64,000 bases of DNA from a virus (IMGVR_UViG_3300020152_000001:44766-108765), one strand, 5' to 3'. Counted from the stretch's first letter, positions 4,050 to 59,900 are shown. Translations and numbers: made by a program. Notes: generated from the sequence alone by a model not told the origin.

Positions 4050-5156
4050 TCATTGGAGCCCCTGCTCGCTAATGCGGCGGAGAATCCACTCACGTGCCTT
4101 CAACGCGATAGGTCCTGCGACCTCTTTCCATGTAAGACCGCTGGCCTCGCGTTCGGCTTCGGTCTCTTTTTCGACATCACGGCCGATCCAGCCGAGAAAG
4201 GGCCCGATCTTTTGCACCGTGGCGACGCCGTCCGGCCAAACGGCCTGCAGGCCTTGCTCAAGGCGGGCCTCATGCACGTGGGCGGTCGTGAATGCCTTAG
4301 CGTTTTCGCTGGCCTCTGCCTTCATGCGGGCTGGTTTCGCGGCGCCCTTCTCGCCGTGGGCGGCGCCTTTGACTTTGAAGAGCAGCGACTGCGAATGCAG
4401 GCGCAGGTTGGACACGTCTTCGATGCGGAAGGCGCGGCCCGGCGTCATCGGGATTTCGACGGACTGCGGATAGAAGACTAGGCCTTCCCCGACGCCGTCG
4501 ATACCGAATACGGATTTGATGTAGGGGTCGCTCTGGTCGATCTTCGCGACTTCGTCGTTGATCTCGCGGACGATCTCTTCACCGCGTTCGCGATCGTTGA
4601 AGTCGAGGCGGATCAGACTGCCTTCGTGCCACGGGATCACTTTGACGCGCGGATGGATGCCGTTCTCGTTCGTCAGCCAGCGCTCGATGGACTCGGGATT
4701 GACAATATGTCCGTCTGCGGTCTCGATCGAGAACACGAAGAAGGTCTTCTCGGGTATCTGCGAGACCGAGACCTTCTTCTGGATTCCGGGGCCAGCCCAT
4801 TCGCCGTGAACGACGACGTACTCGTTCGCCAGCGGCCGGAGTGATGACCAATAGTCGTTCGTCTCTTCGACGAACTTCGCGAAGCCGCAGTTATCGTCCT
4901 CCGGTGTGATGTCGTCGGTGCGCTTCTGCGCCACGACTTTGCCGTAGCTGTAGACGCGGACGCCGCCATTGGTGCCGTGAAGTTTGACCTTCGCGCGATA
5001 CCGGACGATTGGCCGGTTCGGGAAATCGAACATGCCGGCGATCTGCTTCCACACGTTCACGAAGCCGAGGATCGACGGGAATTTGTGGTGATGATCGGAG
5101 ACCGGCGGCCCACCCTCTTCCGCTTCTGCGTAAGTTAGACTGACATCAGATGGCAT
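4050..5156 (-). CDS. RNA ligase, Rnl2-like (nucleotidyltransferase motif I KLHGTN)
   Basis: KVKLHGTNGG matches the T4 Rnl2 motif I (KIHGTN). Start moved to the ATG MPSDVSL at 5156. The ORF-track extension to 5327 overlaps the upstream gene and is low complexity. Confidence 0.75.
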   Translation of the reverse strand: MPSDVSLTYAEAEEGGPPVSDHHHKFPSILGFVNVWKQIAGMFDFPNRPIVRYRAKVKLHGTNGGVRVYSYGKVVAQKRTDDITPEDDNCGFAKFVEETNDYWSSLRPLANEYVVVHGEWAGPGIQKKVSVSQIPEKTFFVFSIETADGHIVNPESIERWLTNENGIHPRVKVIPWHEGSLIRLDFNDRERGEEIVREINDEVAKIDQSDPYIKSVFGIDGVGEGLVFYPQSVEIPMTPGRAFRIEDVSNLRLHSQSLLFKVKGAAHGEKGAAKPARMKAEASENAKAFTTAHVHEARLEQGLQAVWPDGVATVQKIGPFLGWIGRDVEKETEAEREASGLTWKEVAGPIALKAREWILRRISEQGLQ

Positions 5157-5841
5157 AGGTAAGCCCTGCTTTCGGCAGATCGCGTGCCTCGGCCACGCCC
5201 ATGTGCTGGCGCAGCTCCGTGATAAATTGGTCGGCGGTCTGATCGAGGATTTCGCCTTCGATCCAACCGCTCTGATCGAAATAGGCGTGCATGACTTCCG
5301 GCCGCATGCCGCGATGCATGACCTCAAGCCACGCGAGAGCGCGGCTCAGCATCCGCCGGTGCGTGTGCTCGCCGAGATAATCGCGCCAATGGACCTTGCG
5401 ACGCGGCTCCACGCCCTCGTCGACGTAGAAGCCCCACCACGCCTGCTTCTGCATGCGCCAGACGGCGGTGACGATGACGCCGTCATCATCGAGTTCGTAG
5501 CGCTTCTTGTCCCAGATGTTCTCTGGCACTACGCGGGCGCGGCCGAGGATGCGATGCGCGTACTCTGGCCGGCGATAGTGGAAGCGAAAGCGCTTCACGA
5601 TGTTCAGAGTCGTTTTGCCGGTCTTCGGGTCGTAGACTTCCTCGAAGTAGTCGGTGAACGGGAACGTGATGAAGCCCCACGGGTGATCGTGGGGATGTCG
5701 GTCTTCGTCCTTCCGCCACATGACATGCAGGCGGAAGCGCCCGATGATGCAACGGGTCATGTACGGCGACTGATCGCCCTTCCCCGTAATCGTGTCGAAG
5801 AACGGGAGCTTGTTCAGCAACTGTGACAAATGCTTCGCCAT
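5146..5841 (-). CDS. hypothetical protein with His-rich motif (RHPHDHPW)
   Basis: 231-aa ORF. The start codon lies inside the recurrent motif (CGTAAGTgagacTGACATGG). Possible metal-binding HxHDH motif. Function unknown. Confidence 0.5.
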   Translation of the reverse strand: MAKHLSQLLNKLPFFDTITGKGDQSPYMTRCIIGRFRLHVMWRKDEDRHPHDHPWGFITFPFTDYFEEVYDPKTGKTTLNIVKRFRFHYRRPEYAHRILGRARVVPENIWDKKRYELDDDGVIVTAVWRMQKQAWWGFYVDEGVEPRRKVHWRDYLGEHTHRRMLSRALAWLEVMHRGMRPEVMHAYFDQSGWIEGEILDQTADQFITELRQHMGVAEARDLPKAGLTYAI

Positions 5842-14689: not shown

Positions 14690-15434
14690 CGTAGACCATC
14701 CCCGCCGCCCGCATGCGCTGCACGTGGGCTTCGATTTTGTCGCGCTCTGCGCTGTCAGTGACGACCTCGATTACGCCGTCTTCGAGAAGCGGCGACGTTT
14801 CGAGAAACGGAGACTCGGCCAAGGCCTTGTCGACGGCCTGTTTGAGCGTCATCTTGGATTCGACGCCGCGAACATGGTGGCCGGTACCGTCGCCGTTTTT
14901 GTGCCAGCGACGCTCGCGATTGATGAGCATCTTGCCGGCGACGAGATCAATCAGGGACTCGTTGTAGAAGCTCGTGATGGCCATGAGATCGACGAATAGA
15001 AGCGCGACCTGATAGGCGACCTCGCGGCTGTCGAGGAAAGAATAGGCGTGGATGGCCTTAGCCAACGTGAGGTTGGCGTTGGCGACGAGCTGGTCGATGG
15101 CTGGGCCGTTGTGTTGTCTCTCTCCTCGGATCGCGGCGTCGATACGAGCGGGAACGCTGCGGTCCTCGACTGAAAGGCTGGCGAGCACAGAGACGATGTC
15201 GAAGTTCTCGATTTCGAATACGCGGATGGCGACGATGGCAACGTCAGCCGCCTCTTCGACGATCACGTTCTTGTTGCCGGTGACGATTTCCTTCTGAAGC
15301 TCCGCGAGTTCGGTGTTGGCACGGCGAAGTGTCACCAGCGTCGTGGATTCTCCGAACGACTCCGTAGCCCATGCGGTGATGCTGCGCTGGAGTTCACGCC
15401 AGAACAGGTTCTCAGAATGTGTTTCGTTCGTCAT
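14682..15434 (-). CDS. MazG-like NTP pyrophosphohydrolase domain protein
   Basis: LRRANTELAELQKEI...EEAADVAIVAIRVFE resembles the MazG EExxD/E helix pair. Start at ATG MTNETHS (15434). Confidence 0.5.
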   Translation of the reverse strand: MTNETHSENLFWRELQRSITAWATESFGESTTLVTLRRANTELAELQKEIVTGNKNVIVEEAADVAIVAIRVFEIENFDIVSVLASLSVEDRSVPARIDAAIRGERQHNGPAIDQLVANANLTLAKAIHAYSFLDSREVAYQVALLFVDLMAITSFYNESLIDLVAGKMLINRERRWHKNGDGTGHHVRGVESKMTLKQAVDKALAESPFLETSPLLEDGVIEVVTDSAERDKIEAHVQRMRAAGMVYVG

Positions 15435-15843
15435 CGTATCCGGCTTTGCTGTCGATTTCACGGGGAAGCATGATGTCCTCGGCGAAGATGCGCCGGACTC
15501 CCGCACGGCGGGCTCGACGGCACATGTCCAAGGTGCCGGCGCCACCGTCGAAGACGAGCAAGACATCGGGCTTGAGATCGGCGATGGCTTGGTTGCGGAT
15601 GCGGCCGGCTTTGAGGTCGAACTTGTCCCACTCGGCTTCGAGTTCGATCAGGGTCTCACCCCAGACGAACCCGTGTTTGCGGGCCCAGTTGTCGACCAGG
15701 AGATCGGTGCCACGGGCTCCGCCGTGAGCGAGCTTGGTGATGGGACCGCCGTAGCCACGACGCCGATCGTGAACCGCATTCATGACGCGGTTCACGAAGG
15801 TCTGATTTTTCAGGAGGCGAGAGCCCGTAACCGCGAGAAACAT
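15412..15843 (-). CDS. SLOG/DprA-like Rossmann protein
   Basis: VTGSR...LAHGGARGTDL...LLVFDGGAGT resembles the DprA/SLOG GxARGxD signature. Confidence 0.45.
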   Translation of the reverse strand: MFLAVTGSRLLKNQTFVNRVMNAVHDRRRGYGGPITKLAHGGARGTDLLVDNWARKHGFVWGETLIELEAEWDKFDLKAGRIRNQAIADLKPDVLLVFDGGAGTLDMCRRARRAGVRRIFAEDIMLPREIDSKAGYDDERNTF

Positions 15844-15887: not shown

Positions 15888-16325
15888 TTACTTCCGCTTG
15901 CGAAAAGTATCCAAGCGGATGACGGTACCGTCGTCGATCGGCGGCGGAGGTGGAGGCGGCAGCGCCGGGACCCTGACCTCCTGATAGATGGCGAAGCCCT
16001 TGGTCTTGTCGATAAACGTGGAGATCGCATCTAGCGGGACGTAGCAACGAAACTGCGCCCCGTTAAACCATAGGTCGACGCCAAAGCCGTTAGGCTCCAG
16101 TGTGAGGTTTCGGTATTGGTGTTGGAGGATCAGTACGACTTCGGGCCGTGCGTAGAGATGCCTGGGTAGGACGACGCCGGGGAATTCCGTCCGCACTGTC
16201 ACCTGAAAGGTGTGATCTTTGGTCAAGAGGTCACGACGCTGAGCCGCGTATCGCAGCAGCGTTGCTATCGAAAGACGACGCGCGTTATCGAGCGCGTTGT
16301 CATAGGGAATCATCTTCTCGGACAC
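15888..16325 (-). CDS. sspB: SspB-like ClpXP adaptor (stringent starvation protein B family)
   Basis: IPYD...HTFQVTVRTEFPGVVLP...VVLILQHQYRNLTLEPNGFGVDLWFNG...VPLDAISTFID aligns to alphaproteobacterial SspB. A basic C-terminal tail (IRLDTFRKRK) looks like a ClpX-binding motif. GTG start. Confidence 0.6.
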   Translation of the reverse strand: MSEKMIPYDNALDNARRLSIATLLRYAAQRRDLLTKDHTFQVTVRTEFPGVVLPRHLYARPEVVLILQHQYRNLTLEPNGFGVDLWFNGAQFRCYVPLDAISTFIDKTKGFAIYQEVRVPALPPPPPPPIDDGTVIRLDTFRKRK

Positions 16326-19930: not shown

Positions 19931-20166
19931 CAGTCGATCTTTTGGATTCGGACTTTCACGGGCCCGTCCTCGATCACGTTGTAGCCGGTCAGCTTGTCGC
20001 GGAGATGCGGGAGCACGTAGGCCATACGTGCCGCGCCCGCTTCGACAGCCGACCGCGCCGTAACTGTGTGCGTGGTCATGGGGGCGTCGCGATAGAACAG
20101 TTGAAGGGTGAAGCGTTTTTGCCCGTCTTCTTCTTTCACGTCTTTCATGCCGCTTGCCTCTTCCAC
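19930..20166 (-). CDS. hypothetical small protein
   Basis: ATGA coupling with the primase gene. Confidence 0.4.
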   Translation of the reverse strand: MEEASGMKDVKEEDGQKRFTLQLFYRDAPMTTHTVTARSAVEAGAARMAYVLPHLRDKLTGYNVIEDGPVKVRIQKID

Positions 20167-20489
20167 TTCTCCGCCATGAGATAATGCACGCGATCGTAGC
20201 CGACCCAGAAGCGTCGATGCGTTGTTTGATCCTCGACCTCGACGGGGCCGAAGTCGTTCTCTTGTGCGGTGATTTCTGCGATGACGAGGTTCTCGCCGTA
20301 GTCCCGCACTAAGGCCTTGCGGCCTTTGAGGTCCCCGAACTTAGCGTCTCGCAGCTGGACGGCATAGGTTTTGTGGGCGACGAGAACCGTGAGCACAACC
20401 GGGTGTGTGAGTCCCCCTCGGTCAAGCCGATAGACGACCTTCCCTTTTAGGGTTTGGCCTTTGTGGCCGAACTCCACGGTTGCGTTAAT
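20145..20489 (-). CDS. hypothetical protein (start moved)
   Basis: The track start at 20549 is the TTG of a TTGACA box. GTG at 20489 (VINATVEFGHKG) is preceded by gaaagagaaa. Confidence 0.4.
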   Translation of the reverse strand: MNATVEFGHKGQTLKGKVVYRLDRGGLTHPVVLTVLVAHKTYAVQLRDAKFGDLKGRKALVRDYGENLVIAEITAQENDFGPVEVEDQTTHRRFWVGYDRVHYLMAEKWKRQAA

Positions 20490-20574
20490 CACGTCAGTTT
20501 CTCTTTCAGCGGGGTCGCGGACAATAACCGCGACCCCTCCGGATGTCAACTAAACTTACGGCCGGGGAGAAGGG

Positions 20575-20859
20575 TTAGGACTTCTTGGTCACGGCCGTGG
20601 GGACGAAGCCCGCGATGAAGCCAAGGGCGGCGCCCAGCTGGTAGGTCTCGTAGAAACCGAAGAGCCCAGCGAGCTGCCCCAAGGTCGAGGGGAAGAGCAG
20701 GCCCACCAGAAAGCCAATGACGGCGCCGAAGATCGTCTTCACGAGGACGAAGATCGCGAGATAGCCGACAACGGTGCCGAAGACCGCAGCGACCATCGCC
20801 ACGAAGCCGGCGACGGCGGCGGCGATGATTCCAAAAAGAGCGACGATGGCTTTGATCAC
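20575..20859 (-). CDS. polytopic glycine-zipper membrane protein (94 aa)
   Basis: Almost entirely hydrophobic (AIVALFGIIAAAVAGFVAMVAAVFGTVVGYL...). ATGA coupling with the HslV-like gene. Confidence 0.5.
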   Translation of the reverse strand: MIKAIVALFGIIAAAVAGFVAMVAAVFGTVVGYLAIFVLVKTIFGAVIGFLVGLLFPSTLGQLAGLFGFYETYQLGAALGFIAGFVPTAVTKKS

Positions 20860-21335
20860 AGTTTTTCCTTCTCAAGCTGCACGACTCTAATAGAACCGCC
20901 GGTGCGGAGGTCGTGCTCCTTCGCGGCTTCGACGGCCAGTTCTGCGCCGGCGCCGGCGTGCATGGCACCCAACGCAAACTTCGCACCCGAGCCAAGCGCG
21001 TAATACGGCGCGTCGATGTATTCGGCTTCGAAGTCGGGGCCGGCGAAGAGGCCGATGCGGCTGGTTTGCGGATTGACGACGATCGCCTCTGCGAGGTCTT
21101 CGCCGTCGCCGAGTTCGCGGCGCGGATGCGAGTGCGGAGAGAAGTCGTCTCTGACCCAACGCACAAACGCCTCGATGTCGGAGATGCAACCGACGACGCC
21201 AACGAGATAGCGCTTCTCGTCGTTCTCTCCGGCGATCACGTCGAAGACTTTCTGCTTCTGGCCGATGACCGTCGTCTGCGTGGTGACGAGGCTGTCGCCG
21301 GCTAAGACGCCGTCTCTGTAGGCGATGGTACTCAA
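20856..21335 (-). CDS. HslV / proteasome-beta-like Ntn-hydrolase
   Basis: STIAYRDGVLAGDSLVTT aligns to the HslV N-terminus (TTIVSVRRNGHVVIAGDGQ). C-terminal ALGSGAKFALGA resembles GSGGxxA. TTG start overlaps the upstream TGA. Confidence 0.5.
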   Translation of the reverse strand: MSTIAYRDGVLAGDSLVTTQTTVIGQKQKVFDVIAGENDEKRYLVGVVGCISDIEAFVRWVRDDFSPHSHPRRELGDGEDLAEAIVVNPQTSRIGLFAGPDFEAEYIDAPYYALGSGAKFALGAMHAGAGAELAVEAAKEHDLRTGGSIRVVQLEKEKL

Positions 21336-21895
21336 GCGCTGACTCCAGCGTTGATGCCAAGCAAGTCGTCGAACACGTAGAAGACGTGCTCCGGCGGCAT
21401 GTTCTCGTCGACCTTGAGATACCAGTCGAAACCTTCGTCGATGTTCGGGCGCTCGAAATCGGCCCTCATCTTCTCGATGACGGCGTCGGGGATTTCTTTA
21501 CCAGGACGAGACTTCAGGCGGGTGGCGAGAACGTCGTCCTCCACCGACACCCAGATGCAGCCTACGTTGTAGAGCCGCCGGCTCACGCGGTTCGCGATCG
21601 AGGCCCGCTTCTTCGCCGTGAGGTTCGTCTGGTCCCAGATGATGACGCCATGGCCGAAGGCCATCGCCAACGCCATTTGCTCGTTGCAGTGCCGCCGGCC
21701 GGCGTCGGCGAATTGCGAGAAGGCTTCGGTGTAGGTCTTGCCGATCTTCGCGGCCTCGGCTTCGATGTAGTCGTCGGAGCTGATGACCGTGCAGGTGCTT
21801 CCCATCTCTCGAACGTAATTCGCCATGGCGTCGCGTAGCGTCGACTTGCCCGACGCCGGCAAGCCGACGAGAATGATGAGCGTGCGCTTCCTCAC
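21332..21895 (-). CDS. polynucleotide 5'-kinase-like P-loop kinase
   Basis: LIILVGLPASGKSTL...SSDDY closely parallels the T4 Pnk kinase N-terminus (GCPGSGKST...NRDDYR). GTG start overlaps the ligase stop (GTGA). Confidence 0.65.
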   Translation of the reverse strand: MRKRTLIILVGLPASGKSTLRDAMANYVREMGSTCTVISSDDYIEAEAAKIGKTYTEAFSQFADAGRRHCNEQMALAMAFGHGVIIWDQTNLTAKKRASIANRVSRRLYNVGCIWVSVEDDVLATRLKSRPGKEIPDAVIEKMRADFERPNIDEGFDWYLKVDENMPPEHVFYVFDDLLGINAGVSA

Positions 21896-23133
21896 GCGGC
21901 CTCCAGGAATTCTATGAACGACGGCGGGTTCAGGAGCAGCGACTTCGCGTGCTCCCAGTTCTTCGATGTCTGCGCGTGCTTACGCAGGTAATTTAGAATT
22001 GCGTCAGCGGTCGTGACTTTGCCGTCGAAGCACTTGAAAACCAGATGCCGGAGCTGCTGCCAGCGAGGATCAGAAGCAGCGTTCGCTTCCGATGCGATGG
22101 CGAATTCTTTGCGGCCGATCTCCTGAGCACGCAGAGTCTCAACATGGACCTTGGCGTTCAGGTGCTGAATCTCAGTGGCCAAACTCGCGATGTATTCTTC
22201 AACGCGAGCGCGATCTTCCGCAGCAAGAGCCGGCAGCAAGTCGTCGATCTTCTGGTCGAGGAAAAGGGCGGCGACGTTGTGCTCGCGGCCGATCAATTCC
22301 TTGGTCTTGTGCAGCTGCACATACCAGGAGGTCTTGAACTTCAGCATGTGGCCGTCGCGAAGCTGGAGTACGTAGCCCTCCACGCCCTCTGCTTCGTGCA
22401 AGGCCTCGCGGAAGAGTCGTTCGACGGGGACCGTTCCGACTACGGGAATGTCGTAGGAGCGCCCCCAGTTTTCGAGCTGGTCGCGGGGGATGTAGTGGCC
22501 GGTGTAATTCCACCGCGCCGCCAAGAGCACAAGCTGGTCCTCGGGATAGTCGAGGACGATGCGTTGGCGGCGGCTGCACCATTCGAAGATTGGCGTCACG
22601 CCAATGCGGGCGGCGTTTGTCGCAAATTCAACGTAGTTCGGACGCGACGCCACGAACTCTTCGACCGGCAGCGCGACATCAGTGACACCCATCTTCGTGC
22701 CCCAACGGATTCCGCCGGCCACGGGAATCGGCGTGATCATGGAGCCGTCGAGCTTGTCGGCGATCACATGGTCTTCTAACTGCACGAGTTCCAGGCCCGA
22801 GAGACCTTGGTCTTGCCTCTCGCCCTCGTTGAAGAACTTGTGAAAGCGTCGGGCGATGATCTCGCCCGTCGACGTGCGGAAGATGATCCCACGGCACTCT
22901 CGGAGAATCGCGGCGCCGTGATCGTAGTCATAGCGCCGGCCTTGGAATTCGGCATCGTTCGCGAGGACGACCTCGTTGAACACCGGCGGAAACGTCTCCG
23001 GCGTCTGGTAGACGTAATTGATGACGGTGTAGTCGCCTTCCTTCTCGACGACGACAAACTCGTCGCGCCCCTTAATGTGTGGGAGCACGTCGTTGATGCT
23101 TGTGATCGAGGGAAATGGGTAGCCGATCGTCAT
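21892..23133 (-). CDS. RNA ligase, Rnl1-like (motif I KLDGSM)
   Basis: VIADKLDGSM matches the T4 Rnl1 KEDGSL motif I. Start at ATG MTIGYPF (23133). The track extension to 23370 is Arg-rich low complexity. Confidence 0.75.
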   Translation of the reverse strand: MTIGYPFPSITSINDVLPHIKGRDEFVVVEKEGDYTVINYVYQTPETFPPVFNEVVLANDAEFQGRRYDYDHGAAILRECRGIIFRTSTGEIIARRFHKFFNEGERQDQGLSGLELVQLEDHVIADKLDGSMITPIPVAGGIRWGTKMGVTDVALPVEEFVASRPNYVEFATNAARIGVTPIFEWCSRRQRIVLDYPEDQLVLLAARWNYTGHYIPRDQLENWGRSYDIPVVGTVPVERLFREALHEAEGVEGYVLQLRDGHMLKFKTSWYVQLHKTKELIGREHNVAALFLDQKIDDLLPALAAEDRARVEEYIASLATEIQHLNAKVHVETLRAQEIGRKEFAIASEANAASDPRWQQLRHLVFKCFDGKVTTADAILNYLRKHAQTSKNWEHAKSLLLNPPSFIEFLEAA

Positions 23134-23336
23134 CAGTAAAACTGCTGGTAGAAGGAACAGATGGCGTTGTGATGCACGCCGTAGCGATTGATCACGGCGT
23201 CGAAGTCCGCCTTGACGAACGCCGGGGGTTCGCCATTGACGGCTCGAAGCTGGTTCTCGGCGACCATGCCGGAGACTTCCGCGTTCACGCACGCGGCCAT
23301 GCCCACGATATAGGCGGCGGACTGTTCTGGTGTCAT
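23133..23336 (-). CDS. hypothetical small protein (67 aa)
   Basis: Start at MTPEQSAAY. The upstream part of the track ORF is low complexity. Confidence 0.3.
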   Translation of the reverse strand: MTPEQSAAYIVGMAACVNAEVSGMVAENQLRAVNGEPPAFVKADFDAVINRYGVHHNAICSFYQQFY

Positions 23337-23432
23337 GCCAGCGGCACCAAGGCGCCGTTGCACGCGGCAACGATGACGACGATGACGGCTGCGAGAAGCC
23401 CGATGCCGGCGATGATGTTCGTCCGCATCAGA
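23337..23432 (-). CDS. putative 31-aa single-TM peptide
   Basis: MRTNIIAGIGLLAAVIVVIVAACNGALVPLA. Its start overlaps the stop of the phosphatase gene. Below the ORF-track size cutoff. Confidence 0.25.
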
Positions 23433-23949
23433 AGTCTCCGGGTTCGACTTGGCAGCACTTGAGCCCCCGGCGCCGCCACATGGCGACGACGCGGTCGCGA
23501 TCGTCGAAAACGATCTGCGGGTCCCAGCCATCGGCCAGAAGCTCGTCGAGCAGTTCTTCTTTAATGATGTCGTCGGCGCGGTAGTCTTTCGGCGCGCGAA
23601 TGTAGAGCGCATCGTAAGGCACGCCGGTTCGGGGCTCGCCGTCGAAGGCTTCCCATGTGGCCTCGTCGAGCCATTGCTTCGTCAGGTCGACAAACTCGCC
23701 GTCACGTCCCGAGCACAGGACCGTAGCCAGACCCACGGCGCGGGTGGCCAGGATCATGTTGAGGATGGGAGCGATCGGGGCGTCGGAGACACAGCCCTTG
23801 TGGAAGGCGAGGTAGTTCTTCGGCTTGACGGCGATGAACGGGCGACGATGGGAGAGATCGGCGATGGTGCCATCGATGTCGAAGATCGCGCACTTCCGGC
23901 GTGGGAGTGCGTTCACGTCCGACTGTGTAATGGTGCCAAAATCTACCAA
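23428..23949 (-). CDS. HAD-family phosphatase (Pnk 3'-phosphatase-like)
   Basis: AIFDIDGTIADLSHR is the HAD motif I DxDGT (compare T4 Pnk VIFDVDGTLA). Start moved to TTG at 23949 behind gaggggag, because the track start is the TTG inside a TTGACA box. Confidence 0.6.
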   Translation of the reverse strand: MVDFGTITQSDVNALPRRKCAIFDIDGTIADLSHRRPFIAVKPKNYLAFHKGCVSDAPIAPILNMILATRAVGLATVLCSGRDGEFVDLTKQWLDEATWEAFDGEPRTGVPYDALYIRAPKDYRADDIIKEELLDELLADGWDPQIVFDDRDRVVAMWRRRGLKCCQVEPGDF

Positions 23950-24014
23950 TGTGCTCCCCTCGTTAGTGTTCCTGTCGATCGTAAGCCATACTGACGCCCT
24001 TGTCAATCAAAATC

Positions 24015-24644
24015 TCACAGCTGCGAGACCAGGGCGTCCACGGCCGCCGAGGGCTCGATGTAGAGTTCCGTCGATTGCAGCCTCGCGTGGCCGGCGATGT
24101 TCTGCACGTCACGCAGGCTGACGCCCTTACTTTCCTGGGCCAGACGAGCGGCCCTGGTGATGAAGGTTCGGCGCCCAGAGTGCGAACTCGCGCCTTCGAG
24201 ACCGAGCGTGGAATATCGACGCTTGAACCACCACTGCACGCGGTTTGGCGTCAGCCGAGGACCAGCGACGCCGTAGATGACGGCGTCCTGCCGCCCTCGC
24301 GCCGGAGACACGGCGTAGAGATCGCGCAGAGCGGTTTCGAGCATTGGGTGGAGAGGCACGCGGCGTTCGCGTCCCTTCTTGGCGATGTCGCCCGGCACCC
24401 AGATTGATTTGGAAAAGGTGATCTTCCCGGATTCGTCGTCGACGGGGATCAGCTGGCCGATGTTGCCTTCGGGATCGAGAACGTCGTCCCAGTCCAGCCC
24501 CGCGATTTCGGCGGAGCGCAAAGCGGCCTTGAACGAAAGCAGGACCATCGCCCGGTCGCGCTCCGGAGTCTTGCTCTCGGAGACGTAAGCCAGGAATTTA
24601 CCCAGCTGGTTGTCGTTCAGAATTGCCGCCTTCTTCGTTGCCAC
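24015..24644 (-). CDS. minimal tyrosine recombinase (catalytic domain only, 209 aa)
   Basis: C-terminal HSGRRTFITRA...GHARLQSTELYI supplies the R..H-x-x-R...Y catalytic residues. No N-terminal arm-binding domain. Confidence 0.6.
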   Translation of the reverse strand: MATKKAAILNDNQLGKFLAYVSESKTPERDRAMVLLSFKAALRSAEIAGLDWDDVLDPEGNIGQLIPVDDESGKITFSKSIWVPGDIAKKGRERRVPLHPMLETALRDLYAVSPARGRQDAVIYGVAGPRLTPNRVQWWFKRRYSTLGLEGASSHSGRRTFITRAARLAQESKGVSLRDVQNIAGHARLQSTELYIEPSAAVDALVSQL

Positions 24645-24662
24645 TTCGCCTTCCCTTCCTTC

Positions 24663-25070
24663 TCAATGTATCCAGTCGTGCTTCCATTCCTCTTCGCCGA
24701 CTTCGAGAGCGTCGGCCTTGTCTTTCAACTTGCGCCACCACACGAAGCTCTCGTGATAGCGGCGTTCGTTCTCGGCGGCGTCGCCGACTTTGTTGGCCAT
24801 GAGGGCCCAGAAGATGTCGTTCTGGAGATCAGCCAGCAAAACGTGGGCCTCCAGCGCTTCTTCCTCGTCCTCGGCGTAGGCCGACGCGTAGTCCACTCGG
24901 TTCAAGAGCACTGAGGGATCAGGCTCTATGAACTCTTCCATGTCCGCGCCTTCTTCCGGCGCGTAGATCACGCTGATCACGACCGACCATTTCTCCGCGT
25001 TGGACATATCTTGCCCCCAACGTGGGATGGTTTCGTTGACGATCGCTGCCGCTAGGTCTTCAGCTTTCAC
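24663..25070 (-). CDS. hypothetical acidic protein
   Basis: 135 aa, Asp/Glu rich. Confidence 0.45.
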   Translation of the reverse strand: MKAEDLAAAIVNETIPRWGQDMSNAEKWSVVISVIYAPEEGADMEEFIEPDPSVLLNRVDYASAYAEDEEEALEAHVLLADLQNDIFWALMANKVGDAAENERRYHESFVWWRKLKDKADALEVGEEEWKHDWIH

Positions 25071-54208: not shown

Positions 54209-54285
54209 TGGCGCACCCGACAGGATTCGAACCTGTGACCTCTGCCTTCGGAGGGCAGCGCTCTATCCAGCTGAGCTATGGGTGC
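54209..54285 (-). tRNA. tRNA-Arg (anticodon CCG)
   Basis: Reverse complement GCACCCATAGCTCAGCTGGATAGAGCGCTGCCCTCCGAAGGCAGAGGTCACAGGTTCGAATCCTGTCGGGTGCGCCA folds as a cloverleaf. Anticodon loop CTCCGAA. T-loop GGTTCGAATCC. 3' CCA is encoded. Confidence 0.85.
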
Positions 54286-54355: not shown

Positions 54356-55516
54356 ATGGCATCCGTATATCCGGTGACGCTTAAGAACAAGGCCGGTGTC
54401 GAACGCACCGTCTATCGCGTCCAATACACAAACGCCAATGGCAAGCTGAAGCAGAAGCAGTTTCGCAACAAGCGTTTGGCTAACTCCTGGATCAGTGCCG
54501 GCGGCCACGTCGCCGTAGAGGCGGCACCGATCGAAGCCACGGGCTCCAAGTTCTCTGCCATCGCTAAAGCCTGGGTCTCCGCCTGCGAACGCGGCCTCCA
54601 CGGCGAAATGCCGCTCGAAGTCTCCGTCACCGAGGGCTATCGCTCCTATCTTAAGAACTGGATCAATCCCGAGATCGGAGACCTCGACATCGCCGATGTC
54701 GATCGCAACCGCTTCAGGGAATTCCGAGACTGGGTCTTAGAACAAGGCCTCGCGCGGGCGACCGCGAAGAAGATCGTTGGCATCGCCCGCAGCGTCATCA
54801 AGTACGCACTGGACACCGACCTCATCCCCGCCGACCCAACGACGGGAATCACCGTCAAGCTCGCTTCTGGGAGGCATAGGGACCGCTCGACAAAGCGGCT
54901 GCCGGTACATTCCAAGGCAGACATGAAGAAGCTGCTGGCGGTGTCGGCTGAACTCGCGAAGGCCGAGGACAAGCGGACCTCGATCGCCTGGGCTCGCTAT
55001 AGACCCATGCTTCTGCTCTTCGTCTACGCGGGCTTGCGGTCGTCGGAACTCCGGGGACTGCCGAGAGACATGTTCGATCACGCCGAGGGCTCCGTGGAAG
55101 TGAAGCAGCGCGCCGATCGCTACGGCGTCATTGGCCCGCCGAAGTCGACGGCCGGTTATCGCATCATCCGTCTCCCGCGTTGGGTCGCTGACGAAGTCGC
55201 GGAATACCTGAAGACGCACGACCACGAACTCGTCTTCCCTGCCCGACGCAGCGGCGAGCCGATGTCACGCGAGAACATCGAGCGGAGAATGTGGACGCCG
55301 TTGCAAAAGAAGGTCGGAGTGTCTGTGCTGGGTCTCCACTCGATCCGTCACTTCTTCGCGTCGAGGTTGATTGAGCTTGGCGCAAACTCTAAGCAGCTCC
55401 AAGAGCGCATGGGTCACCACAGCGAGAGCTTCACCAAAGACGTGTACGGGCATCTCTTCAAAGACGAAGAAAACATCCGTGCCGACCAGCAACTCGCCGA
55501 ACGGCTGACGCTCTAA
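54356..55516 (+). CDS. int: tyrosine integrase
   Basis: 386 aa. C-terminal HSIRHFFASRLIELG...GHHSESFTKDVYGHL gives the R-H-R-Y catalytic signature. Adjacent to the tRNA. Confidence 0.85.
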   Translation: MASVYPVTLKNKAGVERTVYRVQYTNANGKLKQKQFRNKRLANSWISAGGHVAVEAAPIEATGSKFSAIAKAWVSACERGLHGEMPLEVSVTEGYRSYLKNWINPEIGDLDIADVDRNRFREFRDWVLEQGLARATAKKIVGIARSVIKYALDTDLIPADPTTGITVKLASGRHRDRSTKRLPVHSKADMKKLLAVSAELAKAEDKRTSIAWARYRPMLLLFVYAGLRSSELRGLPRDMFDHAEGSVEVKQRADRYGVIGPPKSTAGYRIIRLPRWVADEVAEYLKTHDHELVFPARRSGEPMSRENIERRMWTPLQKKVGVSVLGLHSIRHFFASRLIELGANSKQLQERMGHHSESFTKDVYGHLFKDEENIRADQQLAERLTL

Positions 55517-56877: not shown

Positions 56878-56905
56878 CACTATCACGCGTTAGCCAAACT
56901 GTCAA
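56878..56905 (-). promoter_or_regulatory. putative promoter TTGACA-N14-TGATAGTG (leaderless class) for the holin-spanin cassette
   Basis: Near-identical to 26963..26990. Overlaps the stop codon of the tail-fibre gene. Confidence 0.4.
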
Positions 56906-59900
56906 GCCGAGGCGGTAATGACGGCGTACCCGTCGCCACCCTTCTGGGCCAGGATTGAGGGGTCGTCTCCTGCGGTGCCGCCCACGGCGATCGGGGCGCC
57001 CGGATAGTCGGGGTCCGCTGTCCCTGCCGGCGTCGCGAAGTTGCCGGCCGTGGTCGAGCCCGAGGTCGCGCCGGCATCGACGTAGCCGCTACCGCCGCCG
57101 CCGGGGTGACCGTCGCCGCCGCCGCCGCCACCGCCCCAATAACCGCCGCCGCCGCCGCCACCGTCATCGGAGGTGGTGGTGAAGCGATCGGCTGTAGCCG
57201 TGCCGAAACCATTGCCGCCTCGGACCTGGGTGCCGGTCTTGCCGAGATTGCTGGTGTCGCTGCGATCGTTGCCGCCGGCCAGCTGAGTGCCGCCGCTGCC
57301 GCCGGTGGTGCCGCCGCTGTCTTGGCCGCTGGTGCCGCCCCCGGCGCCGCCGTCGCTAGAGCCGAAGCCCACGCCGCCACCACCGGCACCGGCCACGGCC
57401 ACGAGAACGTCGTTGATGTAGACTCGGGTCGAGCCACCGCCACCACCGCCGGCCACGTCACCGCGAGCACCGTCACCGCCGTCCGGCCAGCCGCCGGCGC
57501 CACCTTCAGTGAGGTAGACGCCCGGGCCGCCGCCGCCGCCGACTTCGACTTCGACGACATCGCCTTCGGAGACCGCGAACGTGGCTTCAGTGAAGCCGCC
57601 GCCGCCGCCGTCTGAGGAACCGCTGACGTAGATGCCGCCGCCGCCGCCGGCGCCCCACAGCTTCACCGAGATCGAACTCACGCCGGCTTCAACGATGTAG
57701 CGGCGCCGCGTGCCCGTGTGAGCGACTTCGTAGGTGTTACCGGCGATCAGGCTGCCGACTACCGTGAGGAAACCGGAGACCACGGGAGTAAGGGCCGTGG
57801 TCGCCAGGAGGTTATATGCGCGGCCGAGGACCAGCGTCGACACCGTCACCGGCGACGTGTGAACCGCAGTCCAGTCGAGATCGAAGCCGTCAGCCGTAAA
57901 CCCGTCCCAGTCGGCCCGAAGCGCCGTCGCTGACGTGTCGCGACCGATGTAGAAGACGTTGTCGGCGGCGGCAGAACCGCAATTCGAAGGGTCGGTTGCT
58001 TGGTTGAAAGCACCCAAACCCACACCGCCGGCTTCATCAAAAGCGGCGATGCCGAAGCCAGATGCCTGGGCGTTTTCGAAGTACGGGGTGTCGAAGGCCT
58101 CCGCCGAGCTGCCGATCATCAGCGCGAACTCAGGCTGAAAACCGAGCCCGGTGATGCTTTGCACGCCAGTCGTCGTCGGCGTCATGAACGACAGCACGCG
58201 AGCATCGACACCGGGGACGTGAACGAAGAGCGTGATGTTGTCGTCGCCAGTGATGGTGTTGTTGGCTTCGCTGGTGAAGCCGTCTGCATTGAACGACTTC
58301 CAACGGACGAAGCGGTTGAGGGCTGCAGAGTTGTGAGACGCGAAAACTTGGGCCTTGTCTTCGGACATATACAAAGACGGACGGCCGGCGATGCTCTGAG
58401 AGGTCTGTTGAATCCAGTTGACGCTCGCTTGGTTCGCGTTCTTGTCGACGAATCCCAGGCCCGCAGCGAAGACGCCGTTGCTGCCGTCGCCGTTGCCGAG
58501 GTTAGAGAACTCGCCGCCGATGACGCCAAACGTCGGGTGGAAGCCAATGTGGTCGTAGAGAACTTCCAGGTTTGGATTGTGCAGGGCACTGTTGCGGACG
58601 ACGCCTGCCTTCACGTCATGGCCGGCGATGATAACGGCAAAAAACTGGCGTTGCGTGGCTTCGACGGTCGTGAAATTCAGACGCACACCATCAGCGATGA
58701 AAGAGTCGACTGCGGCCCGCACGGCTTGGGCACTGACGGTTTCGCCAGGAAGCGCGGTCGAGATCACGGCATCGTTGTTCTGCATCCGCTGTTCGGATTC
58801 AGCGTCCGATATGCCCTGATTGTCCTCGATCGTCGCCGATACGCACATTTGATGATACGGCGTCGCGGCGCCGAACGCGTAGAGGACGTGATCTGCGGTG
58901 CTGTTCGCTGGAGACTGGCCGCCGAAGATCAGCACGGCTTTCGGAACACGGCCGCCGAGTGCCGTGTCGGTGATGTCGAGAGTGCCGGTAGCCGTTGGCG
59001 TGAGGAACGGCACCACTGCCATCTTGAAGTCGATGTCGTTGTCGCGTTCGATGTAGCCGGACGCCCGAGCATCGTATTGAACGGTCTGCGGGTTCTCACT
59101 CGTCGTCAGCGGGATCATGCTAGGCGAGCCGTTGGCGAACGTGCTCGTCACCTGCAGCGCCAAACCCGATGGCAGCACGCCGGGGTCTTCAGAACGCGTG
59201 TAGGAAGCGCCGCCGAAGTTGAAGCCAATCCAAACAACGTCGCCACGCCGCAGGAAGATCGGGTGCAGAAGCGGGATGTCGTTGTCGCCAACAGACAAAC
59301 CCGTGACCGTCGCCGTCCGAGTCAGCAACAGACCCGGACCATCGGTGCAGTCCGTGAAGATGAGGCCGCGAATGTCCGTCGCCGGCGCCGCCGTTCCCGT
59401 ATAGAAGTGCATGGTATCGAGCCACATGTCTTCTGGCGCGATAAACTTCCGGGCGCGGATGTTGTTGATCGAGCCCGTGGAGTTTGCAGGCTCCACCGGC
59501 GGCGGGGCCGTCATGAACTCTTCTTCGTCAGCGAATGCGAAGATGAAGGCCTTACCGTCAGAGCCGGCGAGAGACTCACCACTCAAGCGATAGCCAAGGC
59601 CGACTTCGTAGCCGTGCTGGTAGCGGCCAGCAGCGGCATTGGTGCTGCGAATAGTCGTGTAGCCATCGATGAAGTCAGCGGAGTTCGCAGCGTAGCCGCT
59701 GCCACCGCCACCGCCAGTAGCAGCGCCGCCGGCGCCGCCGAAGTAGCCGCCGCCACCACCGCCTGAGTACTGGCCGGAGGATTGAACGGTGGTCTCAGAA
59801 TCGCCGTCGTTGAAGCCGTCTCCGCCAAAGCGGCCGTCGCCGCTACGGGTCTCATAGCCGGCGAGACCCTGAATACCGGCGCTGTCTTGATCGGCCGCGA

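Follow-up and report, generated by a model that had tools for sequence, protein, structure and literature searches.

Here, we describe a phage gene cluster that most likely encodes a healing-and-sealing module for broken RNA, most likely tRNA, made up of three proteins encoded separately in a single operon with translational coupling, a reading to which we assign a probability of about 75%. [quoted passage not shown] In the proposed mechanism, modelled on the T4 Pnkp/Rnl1 paradigm, a HAD phosphatase would strip the cyclic or 3' phosphate via an aspartyl-phosphate on Asp24, leaving a 2'-OH,3'-OH end, a P-loop kinase would transfer the gamma-phosphate of an NTP to the 5'-OH with Asp41 as putative general base, and an Rnl1-type ligase, adenylylated on Lys127, would close the break. 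The window, a stretch of 64,000 nucleotides, comes from a separate, uncultured lineage, a large metagenomic phage whose host is probably an alphaproteobacterium. Every RNA-repair gene in the window is carried by the minus strand, and transcription proceeds from the phosphatase through a 31-aa peptide (TM31), a 67-aa ORF (ORF67), and the ligase to the kinase. The original prediction had listed and placed all of these elements correctly, but in the reverse of the order of transcription. The features are as follows.

23978 to 24006, minus strand: sigma-70-like promoter candidate, TTGACA-N17-TACGAT, 10 of 12 hexamer matches
23428 to 23949, minus strand: predicted stand-alone Pnkp-type HAD (DxDxT) polynucleotide 3'-phosphatase, 173 aa, PF25109, motif FDIDGT
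23333 to 23428, minus strand: TM31, hydrophobic peptide of 31 aa, MRTNIIAGIGLLAAVIVVIVAACNGALVPLA, its start overlapping the phosphatase stop
23133 to 23336, minus strand: ORF67, 67 aa, of a widespread phage protein family of ~66 aa
21892 to 23133, minus strand: predicted T4 Rnl1-type ATP-dependent RNA ligase, 413 aa, ATG start, PF09511, motif I ADKLDGSM
21332 to 21895, minus strand: stand-alone P-loop kinase, 187 aa, GTG start, VGLPASGKST...SSDDY, PF13671
20856 to 21335, minus strand: HslV-like peptidase, 159 aa, phrog_1040 (1.6e-34), TTGA-coupled to the kinase
20575 to 20859, minus strand: predicted membrane protein, 94 aa, final gene of the overlapping run

From 23949 down to 20575, seven genes form a single run with overlapping stops and starts. 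The junctions joining phosphatase, TM31, ORF67, ligase, and kinase overlap by 1, 4, 1, and 4 nt (TGATG, ATGA, TGATG, and GTGA), and the last of these, at 21892-21895, couples the kinase start to the stop of the KLDGSM-containing ligase, as had been predicted. The chain of overlaps extends past the kinase to the HslV-like gene and then to the gene of the 94-aa membrane protein, for which a family search gave no match. The phosphatase starts with TTG at 23949, 4 nt downstream of the Shine-Dalgarno sequence AGGGGAG, and the same start was chosen when genes were called independently on the source contig. At 24006, the outer limit originally set for the cluster, the mechanical ORF has its first TTG, but this TTG belongs to the -35 hexamer of the promoter-like site, which sits in the 65-nt gap between a tyrosine-recombinase-like gene and the phosphatase gene. 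Scanning the minus strand yielded three such sites, each in a gap just before a gene, versus 1.3 +/- 1.0 in shuffled sequences; assignment of the site before the phosphatase gene as a promoter is suggestive only.

By homology, the phosphatase is clearly assigned to the Pnkp-type HAD enzymes. It matched PF25109 (HAD_PNKP) at 1.5e-34, with 119.7 bits against a Pfam gathering cut-off of 27.6, phrog_505 and phrog_415 ("polynucleotide kinase") at 1e-35 and 6e-33, Pnkp1 (4xrp) at 1.6e-13, and, in phmmer, T4 Pnkp directly (1ltq/5uj0, 1.6e-15 and 4e-16). The DxDGT motif expected from the original prediction is present, and all 10 T4 phosphatase residues checked are kept: T4 D165, D167, T169, R176, S211, R213, D254, K258, D277, and D278 correspond to D24, D26, T28, R35, S80, R82, D126, K130, D149, and D150, including the S80-G-R82 and D149-D150 motifs. 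Catalytic roles have been assigned to Asp165, Asp167, Ser211, Lys258, and Asp278 of T4 Pnkp (PMC3592404). Among the 120 best homologues of the window phosphatase, 119 are stand-alone proteins.

The ligase is, with similar clarity, predicted to be a relative of T4 Rnl1. It matched PF09511 (RNA_lig_T4_1) at 1.1e-21, phrog_562 at 2.3e-63 over residues 30-388, and the T4 Rnl1 structures 2c5u/5tt6 at 6e-20, with residues 78-350 aligned, C-terminal domain included. With TIGR02308 (1.7e-30), its 106 bits are under the NCBI equivalog cut-off of 242, and it thus appears to be a divergent member of the Rnl1 family. The 12 essential T4 Rnl1 positions checked (R54, K75, F77, K99, D101, G102, K119, E159, E227, G228, K240, and K242) are all kept, as R81, K99, F101, K127, D129, G130, K147, E184, E252, G253, K265, and K267. 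Nucleotidyl-transferase motifs I (KxDG), III (Glu), IV (EG), and V (KxK), the Rnl1-specific N-terminal residues, and the helical C-terminal domain are likewise present. The window thereby shares with T4 Pnkp (PseT) and Rnl1 (gp63) the ligase family and the HAD phosphatase family with the checked catalytic residues, a P-loop kinase of the same clade, and the same predicted chemistry, from 2',3'-cyclic-P/5'-OH to 3'-OH/5'-P to sealed ends.

Gene linkage in other phages points in the same direction. Of 23 phage records with this kinase, 14 have its gene next to an Rnl1 gene (directly downstream in 12, one small ORF further in 2), and an overlap of ligase and kinase genes, 4-44 nt long, recurs in six further loci: RpAliso, DSS3P8, metagenomic locus L007, Caulobacter Cr30, Ochrobactrum vB_OspM_OC, and Rhizobium RHph_I1_18. 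This linkage spans several alphaproteobacterial phage lineages. The full order, phosphatase, ligase, kinase, recurs in DSS3P8-like phages, in metagenomic loci L007 and L008, and in vB_OspM_OC. The DSS3P8-like roseophages comprised Roseobacter DSS3P8, Ruegeria vB_RpoS-V10 and RpAliso, DSS3_MAL1, Phaeobacter MD18, and Rhodobacter RcXuper, with identities to the window proteins of 41-48% (phosphatase), 39-42% (ligase), and 31-38% (kinase); similarity of these phages to the window at the nucleotide level was not found. The cassettes of DSS3P8 and RpAliso, read whole, contain, as here, a small tyrosine recombinase, the phosphatase, variable small ORFs, Rnl1, the overlapping kinase, and an HslV-like peptidase, and in the other four phages the three enzymes have the same order and spacing. 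The HslV-like gene is kept immediately downstream of the kinase in loci L001, L002, and L007. In vB_OspM_OC (p110-p107), which is classified in Kyanoviridae, a single gene separates a stand-alone HAD phosphatase from Rnl1, whose gene overlaps that of a kinase from the family seen here; a metallophosphatase and a Macro-domain protein are encoded nearby, but neither an HslV-like protein nor a recombinase. The product of the intervening gene is receiver-like ("response regulator") and of the cRec type described in PMC7824862, where phage polynucleotide kinases and HAD phosphatases were reported to accompany RNA ligases. The unfused layout is therefore not peculiar to the source phage: cultured phages of Ruegeria, Rhodobacter, and Ochrobactrum have it too, already annotated, and the RpAliso genes carry the names "polynucleotide kinase", "RNA ligase", and "polynucleotide kinase".

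TM31 and ORF67, which the original prediction had interleaved with the enzymes, are present, but they probably represent variable cargo in a variable slot rather than parts of the RNA-repair pathway, since they are not conserved in syntenic cassettes and the closest ORF67 homologue lies in a phage region without RNA-repair genes. The gene call on the source contig includes TM31, but a homologue of it was not found at the syntenic loci of related phages, nor was ORF67 found in their syntenic cassettes, where, in DSS3P8-like phages, the slot holds three to five different small genes, one of them for a cell-wall hydrolase. Third-position GC of TM31 and ORF67 (0.84 and 0.79) agrees with the 0.74-0.85 of the adjoining genes. 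ORF67 has homologues in 289 cluster representatives at E<=1e-3, nearly all of 65-70 aa and matching over the full length, and its AlphaFold2 model (pLDDT 94) consists of three helices, with no fold match in the PDB.

The kinase appears to be a member of the polynucleotide-kinase/PSTK clade that forms a distinct stand-alone family. It matched PF13671 (AAA_33) at 4.8e-20, phrog_2071 at 4.8e-24, and phrog_505 at 2.5e-11, and its single-sequence search did not reach T4 Pnk at E<=1. The domain matches of all three enzymes lie far outside what chance would produce. A profile of the kinase family retrieved from the PDB PSTK (6e-13), mammalian PNKP (1e-11), the Clostridium thermocellum Pnkp kinase domain (CthPnkp, 2e-11), and T4 Pnk (2e-11), as well as Pnkp1 and the stand-alone Rhizopus/Lichtheimia kinases 9d8a and 9drz. 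The top 16 matches (6e-13 to 4e-10) are all nucleic-acid or tRNA kinases, followed by the small-molecule enzyme shikimate kinase at 9e-5; E-values for four families of polynucleotide kinases range from 1e-11 to 2e-10, and those for small-molecule kinases are 9e-5 or worse. In hhalign, the T4 Pnk kinase domain was aligned at 98.6% (E 6e-16). The resemblance to the T4 Pnk N-terminus (GxPxSGKST...DDY) claimed earlier is evident in the P-loop, G11-x4-G16-K17-S18, and in SSDDY, where D41 is invariant in 46/46 sequences. The DxTN motif reads W-D88-Q-T90-N, and R97, R126, and R130 correspond to T4 R93, R122, and R126. Equivalents of Arg34 and Arg38 (D-x-x-R motif), which in T4 Pnk contact the phosphate of the acceptor nucleotide, are absent; S40 and I44 stand in their place, and the family as a whole has hydrophobic or small residues there (consensus S/T-D-D-Y-I-E). 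Because mammalian PNKP, as we read its sequence, also lacks the +3 Arg, this feature would mark the T4/Clostridium subtype and not the whole clade.

Thus, the idea that the end-healing enzyme is a split T4 Pnkp is borne out only in so far as the genes are separate: T4 Pnkp is one enzyme of 301 aa, whereas here 1.5 kb and three genes separate the kinase gene from the phosphatase gene, within one overlapping operon that also holds the ligase. Simple fission was rejected, since the phosphatase matches T4 Pnkp directly and the kinase via its family profile only; for the same profile-only link and the lack of Arg34/Arg38, orthology of the kinase to T4 Pnk was rejected as well.

It is conceivable, though unlikely, that the kinase is not a polynucleotide 5'-kinase but acts, PSTK/KTI12-like, on another tRNA-linked hydroxyl, or on a small molecule or nucleotide, so that ligase and phosphatase alone would act on broken RNA, with 5' phosphorylation supplied from elsewhere or not needed. 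PSTK, whose known target is Ser-tRNA(Sec), is the best single match in phmmer, the profile search, and NCBIfam; the family has its own motif, T54-Y55-x3-F59, besides lacking the two T4 arginines; and NAD-salvage genes are found close by in relatives. Nor does the fold discriminate: in a Foldseek search with the AlphaFold2 model (pLDDT 92), PFKFB, PSTK, and a putative kinase ranked over the Clostridium thermocellum Pnkp kinase domain, leaving the protein indistinguishable from 6-phosphofructo-2-kinase or other P-loop kinases. However, with 187 aa versus about 250, it is devoid of the C-terminal tRNA-binding domain of PSTK/KTI12, and the four polynucleotide 5'-kinases score essentially as PSTK does. 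A C-terminal PxxEGF motif is shared with mammalian PNKP and the kinase half of the fused Pnkp P0234, and the tight overlap with Rnl1 is kept across otherwise differing phage lineages.

A use of the module in the phage's own RNA or DNA housekeeping instead of counter-defence, such as tRNA maturation or repair (phage or host), DNA end-cleaning for a DNA ligase, or 3'-nucleotide salvage, appears improbable. DNA ends and 3'-dNMPs are further substrates of T4 Pnkp, and some phage loci hold a stand-alone HAD_PNKP phosphatase with neither RNA ligase nor kinase within 6 kb, one of them near an ATP-dependent DNA ligase, so that this phosphatase may have uses beyond RNA repair. In the window, by contrast, the ligase gene co-transcribed with those of the phosphatase and kinase is for an RNA ligase of the Rnl1 type and not for a DNA ligase, and the Rhizobium phage neighbourhood is tRNA-centred, the ligase-kinase pair of RHph_I1_18 adjoining a CCA-adding enzyme, a Thg1-like tRNA-His guanylyltransferase, and tRNA genes. 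For the T4 homologues, whose tRNA repair pathway is described in PMC10946426, reversal of PrrC damage is the only tested biological role. From this paradigm, hosts with anticodon nucleases, as proposed in the original prediction, are a reasonable inference, and the module may act in counter-defence. That the ligase serves mainly in tail-fibre attachment (the gp63 activity of T4 Rnl1), with coincidental neighbours, is hardly credible despite the PHROG and RefSeq name "RNA ligase and tail fiber protein attachment catalyst", as every ligase catalytic residue is kept, the gene is linked to end-healing enzymes and lies in an early/replication-type region beside the primase-helicase gene rather than tail genes, and the closest relatives in culture are siphoviruses that lack long tail fibres of the T4 type (PMC7643831).

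Other healing-and-sealing systems differ in architecture. In Streptomyces phage Braelyn, the end-healing enzyme and Rnl1 (gp187 and gp183) are separated by small ORFs within one cluster close to tRNA genes, but the former is the usual 301-aa kinase-phosphatase fusion. The bacterial Pnkp1-Rnl-Hen1 and Pnkp/Hen1 systems follow the same healing-then-sealing logic with a homologous phosphatase domain, yet they are fused multidomain proteins with a different ligase family and the 2'-O-methyltransferase Hen1, which is absent here. The Mucorales/Branchiostoma tRNA-splicing enzymes, with a stand-alone RNA ligase, provide a precedent for unfused healing and sealing (PMC10946426), although this eukaryotic pathway requires a 2'-PO4 end and employs a Trl1-type ligase and a cyclic phosphodiesterase, with no role for a HAD phosphatase.

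The three-gene RNA-repair set is a sound but fairly ordinary annotation. The absence of Arg34/Arg38, the T-Y-x3-F motif, and the best matches to PSTK make a tRNA-directed, non-generic kinase conceivable. We consider it doubtful that either the kinase family is tRNA-directed with a different acceptor or specificity or the seven-gene operon, the conserved HslV-like peptidase included, is one counter-defence unit. In the latter case, the operon would both repair RNA and proteolytically degrade the host nuclease responsible for the damage.

Three genes of one minus-strand run in the window, encoding a HAD phosphatase, an Rnl1-type ligase, and a P-loop kinase, would together constitute an RNA healing-and-sealing pathway, a reading to which we assign a probability of about three in four. 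All genes listed in the original prediction, which had interpreted this region as a split T4 Pnkp/Rnl1 RNA repair pathway, were present, and the motifs quoted for them were found (GLPASGKST...SSDDY in the kinase, KLDGSM in the ligase, and FDIDGT in the phosphatase). However, the genes are read on the minus strand, and transcription thus runs opposite to the order in which they had been listed.

Genes of the cassette and the recombinase gene preceding it
24015-24644, minus strand: small tyrosine recombinase-like gene (209 aa); 65-nt gap before the phosphatase
23949-23428, minus strand: phosphatase, TTG start; junction with the next gene TGATG
23428-23333, minus strand: TM31, 31-aa ORF; junction with ORF67 ATGA
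23336-23133, minus strand: ORF67, 67-aa ORF; junction with the ligase TGATG
23133-21892, minus strand: Rnl1 ligase; junction with the kinase GTGA
21895-21332, minus strand: P-loop kinase; junction with the HslV-like gene TTGA
21335-20856, minus strand: HslV-like gene; 4-nt overlap with the 94-aa gene
20859-20575, minus strand: 94-aa membrane protein; last gene of the run

The 65-nt gap holds the sequence TTGACA-N17-TACGAT (24006-23978, minus strand), followed by the Shine-Dalgarno sequence AGGGGAG. Promoter-like sites of the form TTGACA-N17-TAnnnT were found at three minus-strand positions (25667-25639, 24006-23978, and 20549-20521), each in a gap that immediately precedes a gene. At two of these sites, the start of a mechanical ORF (24006 and 20549, respectively) lies within the -35 hexamer itself. 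Because TTGACA begins at 24006, the longer mechanical phosphatase ORF (TTG at 24006) starts in the -35 hexamer. Position 23949, the start originally proposed, is the better one, backed by the Shine-Dalgarno sequence, the promoter position, and the same start in an independent gene call; gene calls were compared with those on ENA contig ERZ27252484 k141_12613 (132,745 bp), which matches the window. A second match to the window was a Logan contig from SRR7003767. Third-position GC is about 0.77-0.85 across all genes of the run, including both micro-ORFs (TM31 and ORF67), at a window GC of approximately 60%.

Linkage in other phage genomes provides the strongest support for a common function of these genes. 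In the closest metagenomic relative (loci L007/L008), the order is recombinase, phosphatase, one small ORF, Rnl1, kinase, and HslV-like peptidase, with the primase-helicase located two to three small ORFs later. In the cultured Roseobacter/Ruegeria phages DSS3P8 and RpAliso, recombinase and phosphatase are separated by three to five variable genes from Rnl1, which is followed by the kinase and 'proteasome subunit beta', and RpAliso annotates both end-healing genes as 'polynucleotide kinase'. Beyond this lineage, the phosphatase gene of the Ochrobactrum phage vB_OspM_OC (Kyanoviridae) is followed by genes for a receiver-like protein, RNA ligase 1, and the kinase, Rnl1 and kinase are found together in the Caulobacter phage Cr30, and the Rhizobium phage RHph_I1_18 encodes a CCA-adding enzyme, a Thg1-like guanylyltransferase, an RNA ligase, and the kinase, as well as tRNA-Lys and tRNA-Gln genes at a distance of 2 kb. 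In each of the six loci (DSS3P8, RpAliso, L007, Cr30, vB_OspM_OC, and RHph_I1_18), the ligase gene runs 4 to 44 nt into the kinase gene. The kinase adjoins Rnl1 in 14 of the 23 kinase-bearing phage records: in 12 it is the next gene downstream, and in two, the Synechococcus phages B3 and B23, a small ORF lies between them. In contrast to the separate genes of the window, Streptomyces phages and T4-like phages possess the usual fused 301-aa Pnkp near Rnl1; T4 Pnkp is a tetramer. The small gene CcrBL9 gp478, which overlaps Rnl1 in CbK-like Caulobacter phages, proved to lie outside the kinase family, and these phages therefore do not share the ligase-kinase pairing. The small recombinase, which comprises the catalytic domain only and is encoded immediately upstream of the phosphatase, occupies the same place in DSS3P8, RpAliso, and L007 (37-57% identity), whereas vB_OspM_OC does not have it there. 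This type of cassette is already present, labelled yet uncharacterised, in several cultured or GenBank phage genomes, and the window is one more instance.

By sequence, the phosphatase is a bona fide HAD_PNKP family member (Pfam, 119.7 bits, E 1.5e-34). It was assigned to PHROG families of phage polynucleotide kinase-phosphatases, and phmmer matched it to the T4 Pnkp phosphatase domain (4e-16) and to Capnocytophaga Pnkp1 (1.6e-13). All 10 mapped T4 residues are kept (D165, D167, T169, R176, S211, R213, D254, K258, D277, and D278). In T4, Asp165 acts as nucleophile and Asp167 as acid-base catalyst, the phosphate contacts are Ser211 and Lys258, and the Mg2+ ion is held by Asp165 and Asp278; this domain heals 2',3'-cyclic phosphate ends (PMC3592404). 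Among the 120 best homologues of the phosphatase, 119 are stand-alone proteins, some of them encoded in phage loci with neither ligase nor kinase within 6 kb. Therefore, the phosphatase is not exclusively tied to an RNA repair pathway.

The ligase matched RNA_lig_T4_1 in Pfam (1.1e-21), phrog_562 (2.3e-63), and TIGR02308 (1.7e-30, below the equivalog cut-off), and its residues 78-350 align with T4 Rnl1 crystal structures (6e-20). Twelve of 12 essential T4 Rnl1 positions, a list that reportedly stems from mutational work of the Shuman laboratory, are kept, including the adenylylated lysine (T4 K99, here K127). A further ligase gene was detected in the window:

4050-5327, minus strand: Rnl2-type second ligase (PF09414, 8e-11; phrog_548, 8e-39; TIGR02307, 1.3e-9)

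Its sole PDB match was T4 Rnl2 (7e-7), and its mechanical ORF has approximately 110 extra N-terminal residues, which may reflect a start called too far upstream or an additional domain. With this gene beside Rnl1, the phage carries both ligase types, a feature shared with T4.

The kinase is the least certain part of the cassette. It matched AAA_33 in Pfam (4.8e-20), and among PHROGs it scored best with phrog_2071, an 'ATPase' family (4.8e-24), and less well with phrog_505, the Pnkp family (2.5e-11). As a single phmmer query against the PDB, it best matched archaeal PSTK (1.7e-6), the kinase of Ser-tRNA(Sec), and did not reach T4 Pnk, to which it could be linked only through a family profile and hhalign. 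All 192 homologues retrieved from the database are short proteins (about 145-205 aa) that stand alone. A profile (A1) built from 46 of these placed nucleic-acid kinases first in the PDB, namely PSTK (6e-13), mammalian PNKP (1e-11), Rhizopus 9d8a, a stand-alone kinase (2e-11), the Clostridium thermocellum Pnkp kinase domain (2e-11), T4 Pnk (2e-11), and Pnkp1 (2e-10), with shikimate kinase next (9e-5). The proposed kinship to the T4 kinase domain was borne out by hhalign (98.6% probability, E 6e-16, 137 columns; T4 sequence identical to 1ly1), but structure comparison did not separate the substrate class: Foldseek of the AlphaFold2 model (pLDDT 92) against the PDB found PFKFB, PSTK, polynucleotide kinase, and gluconate kinase with comparable scores, and the fold therefore does not settle the substrate.

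Residues kept in the kinase include K17 and S18 of the P-loop, the invariant Asp41 (equivalent to T4 Asp35, the proposed general base), D88-x-T90-N, R97, and the lid arginines R126 and R130 (T4 R122 and R126). T4 Arg34 and Arg38 bind the acceptor's phosphate; the corresponding positions are S40 and I44 in the kinase, and residues there are small or hydrophobic throughout the family as well as in the six phage orthologues read. The family has a motif of its own, T54-Y55-x3-F59, and a C-terminal PxxEGF motif in common with mammalian PNKP. We conclude that the kinase represents a distinct, uncharacterised family within the polynucleotide-kinase/PSTK clade and that it and the T4 kinase domain are not orthologues. 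The original interpretation was essentially right in that homology and linkage uphold T4-style healing and sealing by three genes. However, 'split Pnkp' is probably correct for function and not for evolutionary history; as an evolutionary label it was rejected, since the phosphatase is close to that of T4 but the kinase is not.

In the Sinorhizobium phage phiN3 (KR052482.1, 203702-204214), a kinase homologue was found inside a 'putative polyA polymerase', far from Rnl1. A further match of the kinase is to the C-terminal half of phrog_6931, a PHROG of 343 positions without assigned function; this may be a nucleotidyltransferase-kinase fusion. The annotated kinase homologue of Synechococcus phage B23, gp130 (L020, 4986-5438), fits the kinase profile only to about residue 120 and then diverges, and its recovery by tblastn in two pieces suggests a frameshift or sequencing error.

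Neither TM31 nor ORF67 has a counterpart in the syntenic cassettes. ORF67 is, from its conservation, a real gene: an exhaustive search yielded 289 cluster representatives, nearly all of 65-70 aa, which form a large unannotated phage protein family with the consensus MTxEQxAAYxxAQAACAxAExxGMxAxN...G..PxY...DF...YGIHHNAV and an invariant N28. It had no match in Pfam, PHROGs, or PADLOC, and a word-index search recovered only ORF67 itself. AlphaFold2 predicted a three-helix fold (pLDDT 94) with no fold match in the PDB (best E 3.5). The nearest homologue comes from the early region of a phage, where its neighbours are SbcC-like, HTH, and DUF3799 genes and RNA-repair enzymes are absent. No TM31 homologues were detected in syntenic loci or family searches. 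Its sequence, MRTNIIAGIGLLAAVIVVIVAAC-NGALVPLA, with the lipobox-like VAAC, looks like a lipoprotein signal peptide, cleavage of which would leave a 9-residue mature lipopeptide. We treat both micro-ORFs as cargo in a variable slot, which in the roseophages is occupied by a cell-wall hydrolase and other small genes, and in vB_OspM_OC by the receiver-like protein. PADLOC made no defence-system assignment among the cassette proteins. The HslV-like peptidase (phrog_1040, 1.6e-34) directly follows the kinase in RpAliso, DSS3P8, and L007 as well. These three copies begin with (M/L)TTIAY and carry Thr2, the nucleophile in HslV; the window copy begins with MSTIAY and carries Ser2. No HslU partner was seen.

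The window derives from a large tailed phage, with genes for rIIA-like and rIIB proteins, a DUF5906 primase-helicase, a family-A DNA polymerase, helicases, a class II ribonucleotide reductase, and a 2153-aa tail protein near the cassette.

Further features of the window
15412-15843, minus strand: YAcAr/SLOG-domain protein (Pfam match on the source contig), beside the primase-helicase
15888-16325, minus strand: SspB-like protein of the ClpX adaptor family (Pfam match on the source contig), beside the primase-helicase
54209-54285, minus strand: tRNA-Arg(CCG), abutting the full-length tyrosine integrase
54356-55516, plus strand: full-length tyrosine integrase (386 aa), beside tRNA-Arg(CCG)
56902-63363, minus strand: 2153-aa tail protein with Phage-tail_3, a gene-transfer-agent-like Rcc01698 C-terminal domain, and an ALK/LTK-type glycine-rich domain

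Megablast of positions 20000-25000 against the phage collection returned no nucleotide-level match; kinship to known phages is visible at the protein level only. The nearest cultured relatives by protein are DSS3P8-like siphoviruses of Ruegeria, Phaeobacter, and Rhodobacter (approximately 146-150 kb), described as relatives of CbK-like Caulobacter phages (PMC7643831). The integrase and tRNA-Arg(CCG) sit in an otherwise lytic-type-looking large phage with rIIA/rIIB, which may reflect either an attP-type arrangement or just a tRNA gene of the phage. All 77 nt of this tRNA found no match in genomes; its 3' 38 nt matched at least 120 genomes, nearly all of Alphaproteobacteria. The host is probably an alphaproteobacterium, but the 38-nt match is too broad to name it or to trace its nucleases.

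By homology to T4 (PMC10946426, PMC3592404), the phosphatase would convert 2',3'-cyclic phosphate or 3'-phosphate ends to 3'-OH, the kinase would place a phosphate onto the 5'-OH, and Rnl1 would seal the healed break; the enzyme activities, the substrate, and a counter-defence role are our inferences. T4 Pnkp together with Rnl1 rescues S. cerevisiae trl1-delta (PMC10946426). Large phages have been reported to encode RNA ligases with polynucleotide kinases and HAD phosphatases, the phosphatase 'usually' being fused to the kinase, and this combination was interpreted as a means of countering tRNA damage inflicted by the host (PMC7824862). Our finding fits this published comparative-genomic framework, the only mildly surprising element being the departure of the kinase family from the T4 acceptor site. 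Candidate residues that may stand in for the acceptor-binding arginines of T4 (Arg34 and Arg38) in substrate recognition are T54, Y55, F59, and R97. If true, the cassette would represent a natural, fully unfused T4 healing-and-sealing pathway, offering small single-activity enzymes for biochemistry and as tools. RNA-repair counter-defence would then be common in phages of marine and soil alphaproteobacteria, and would therefore point to RNA-cleaving defences in these hosts.
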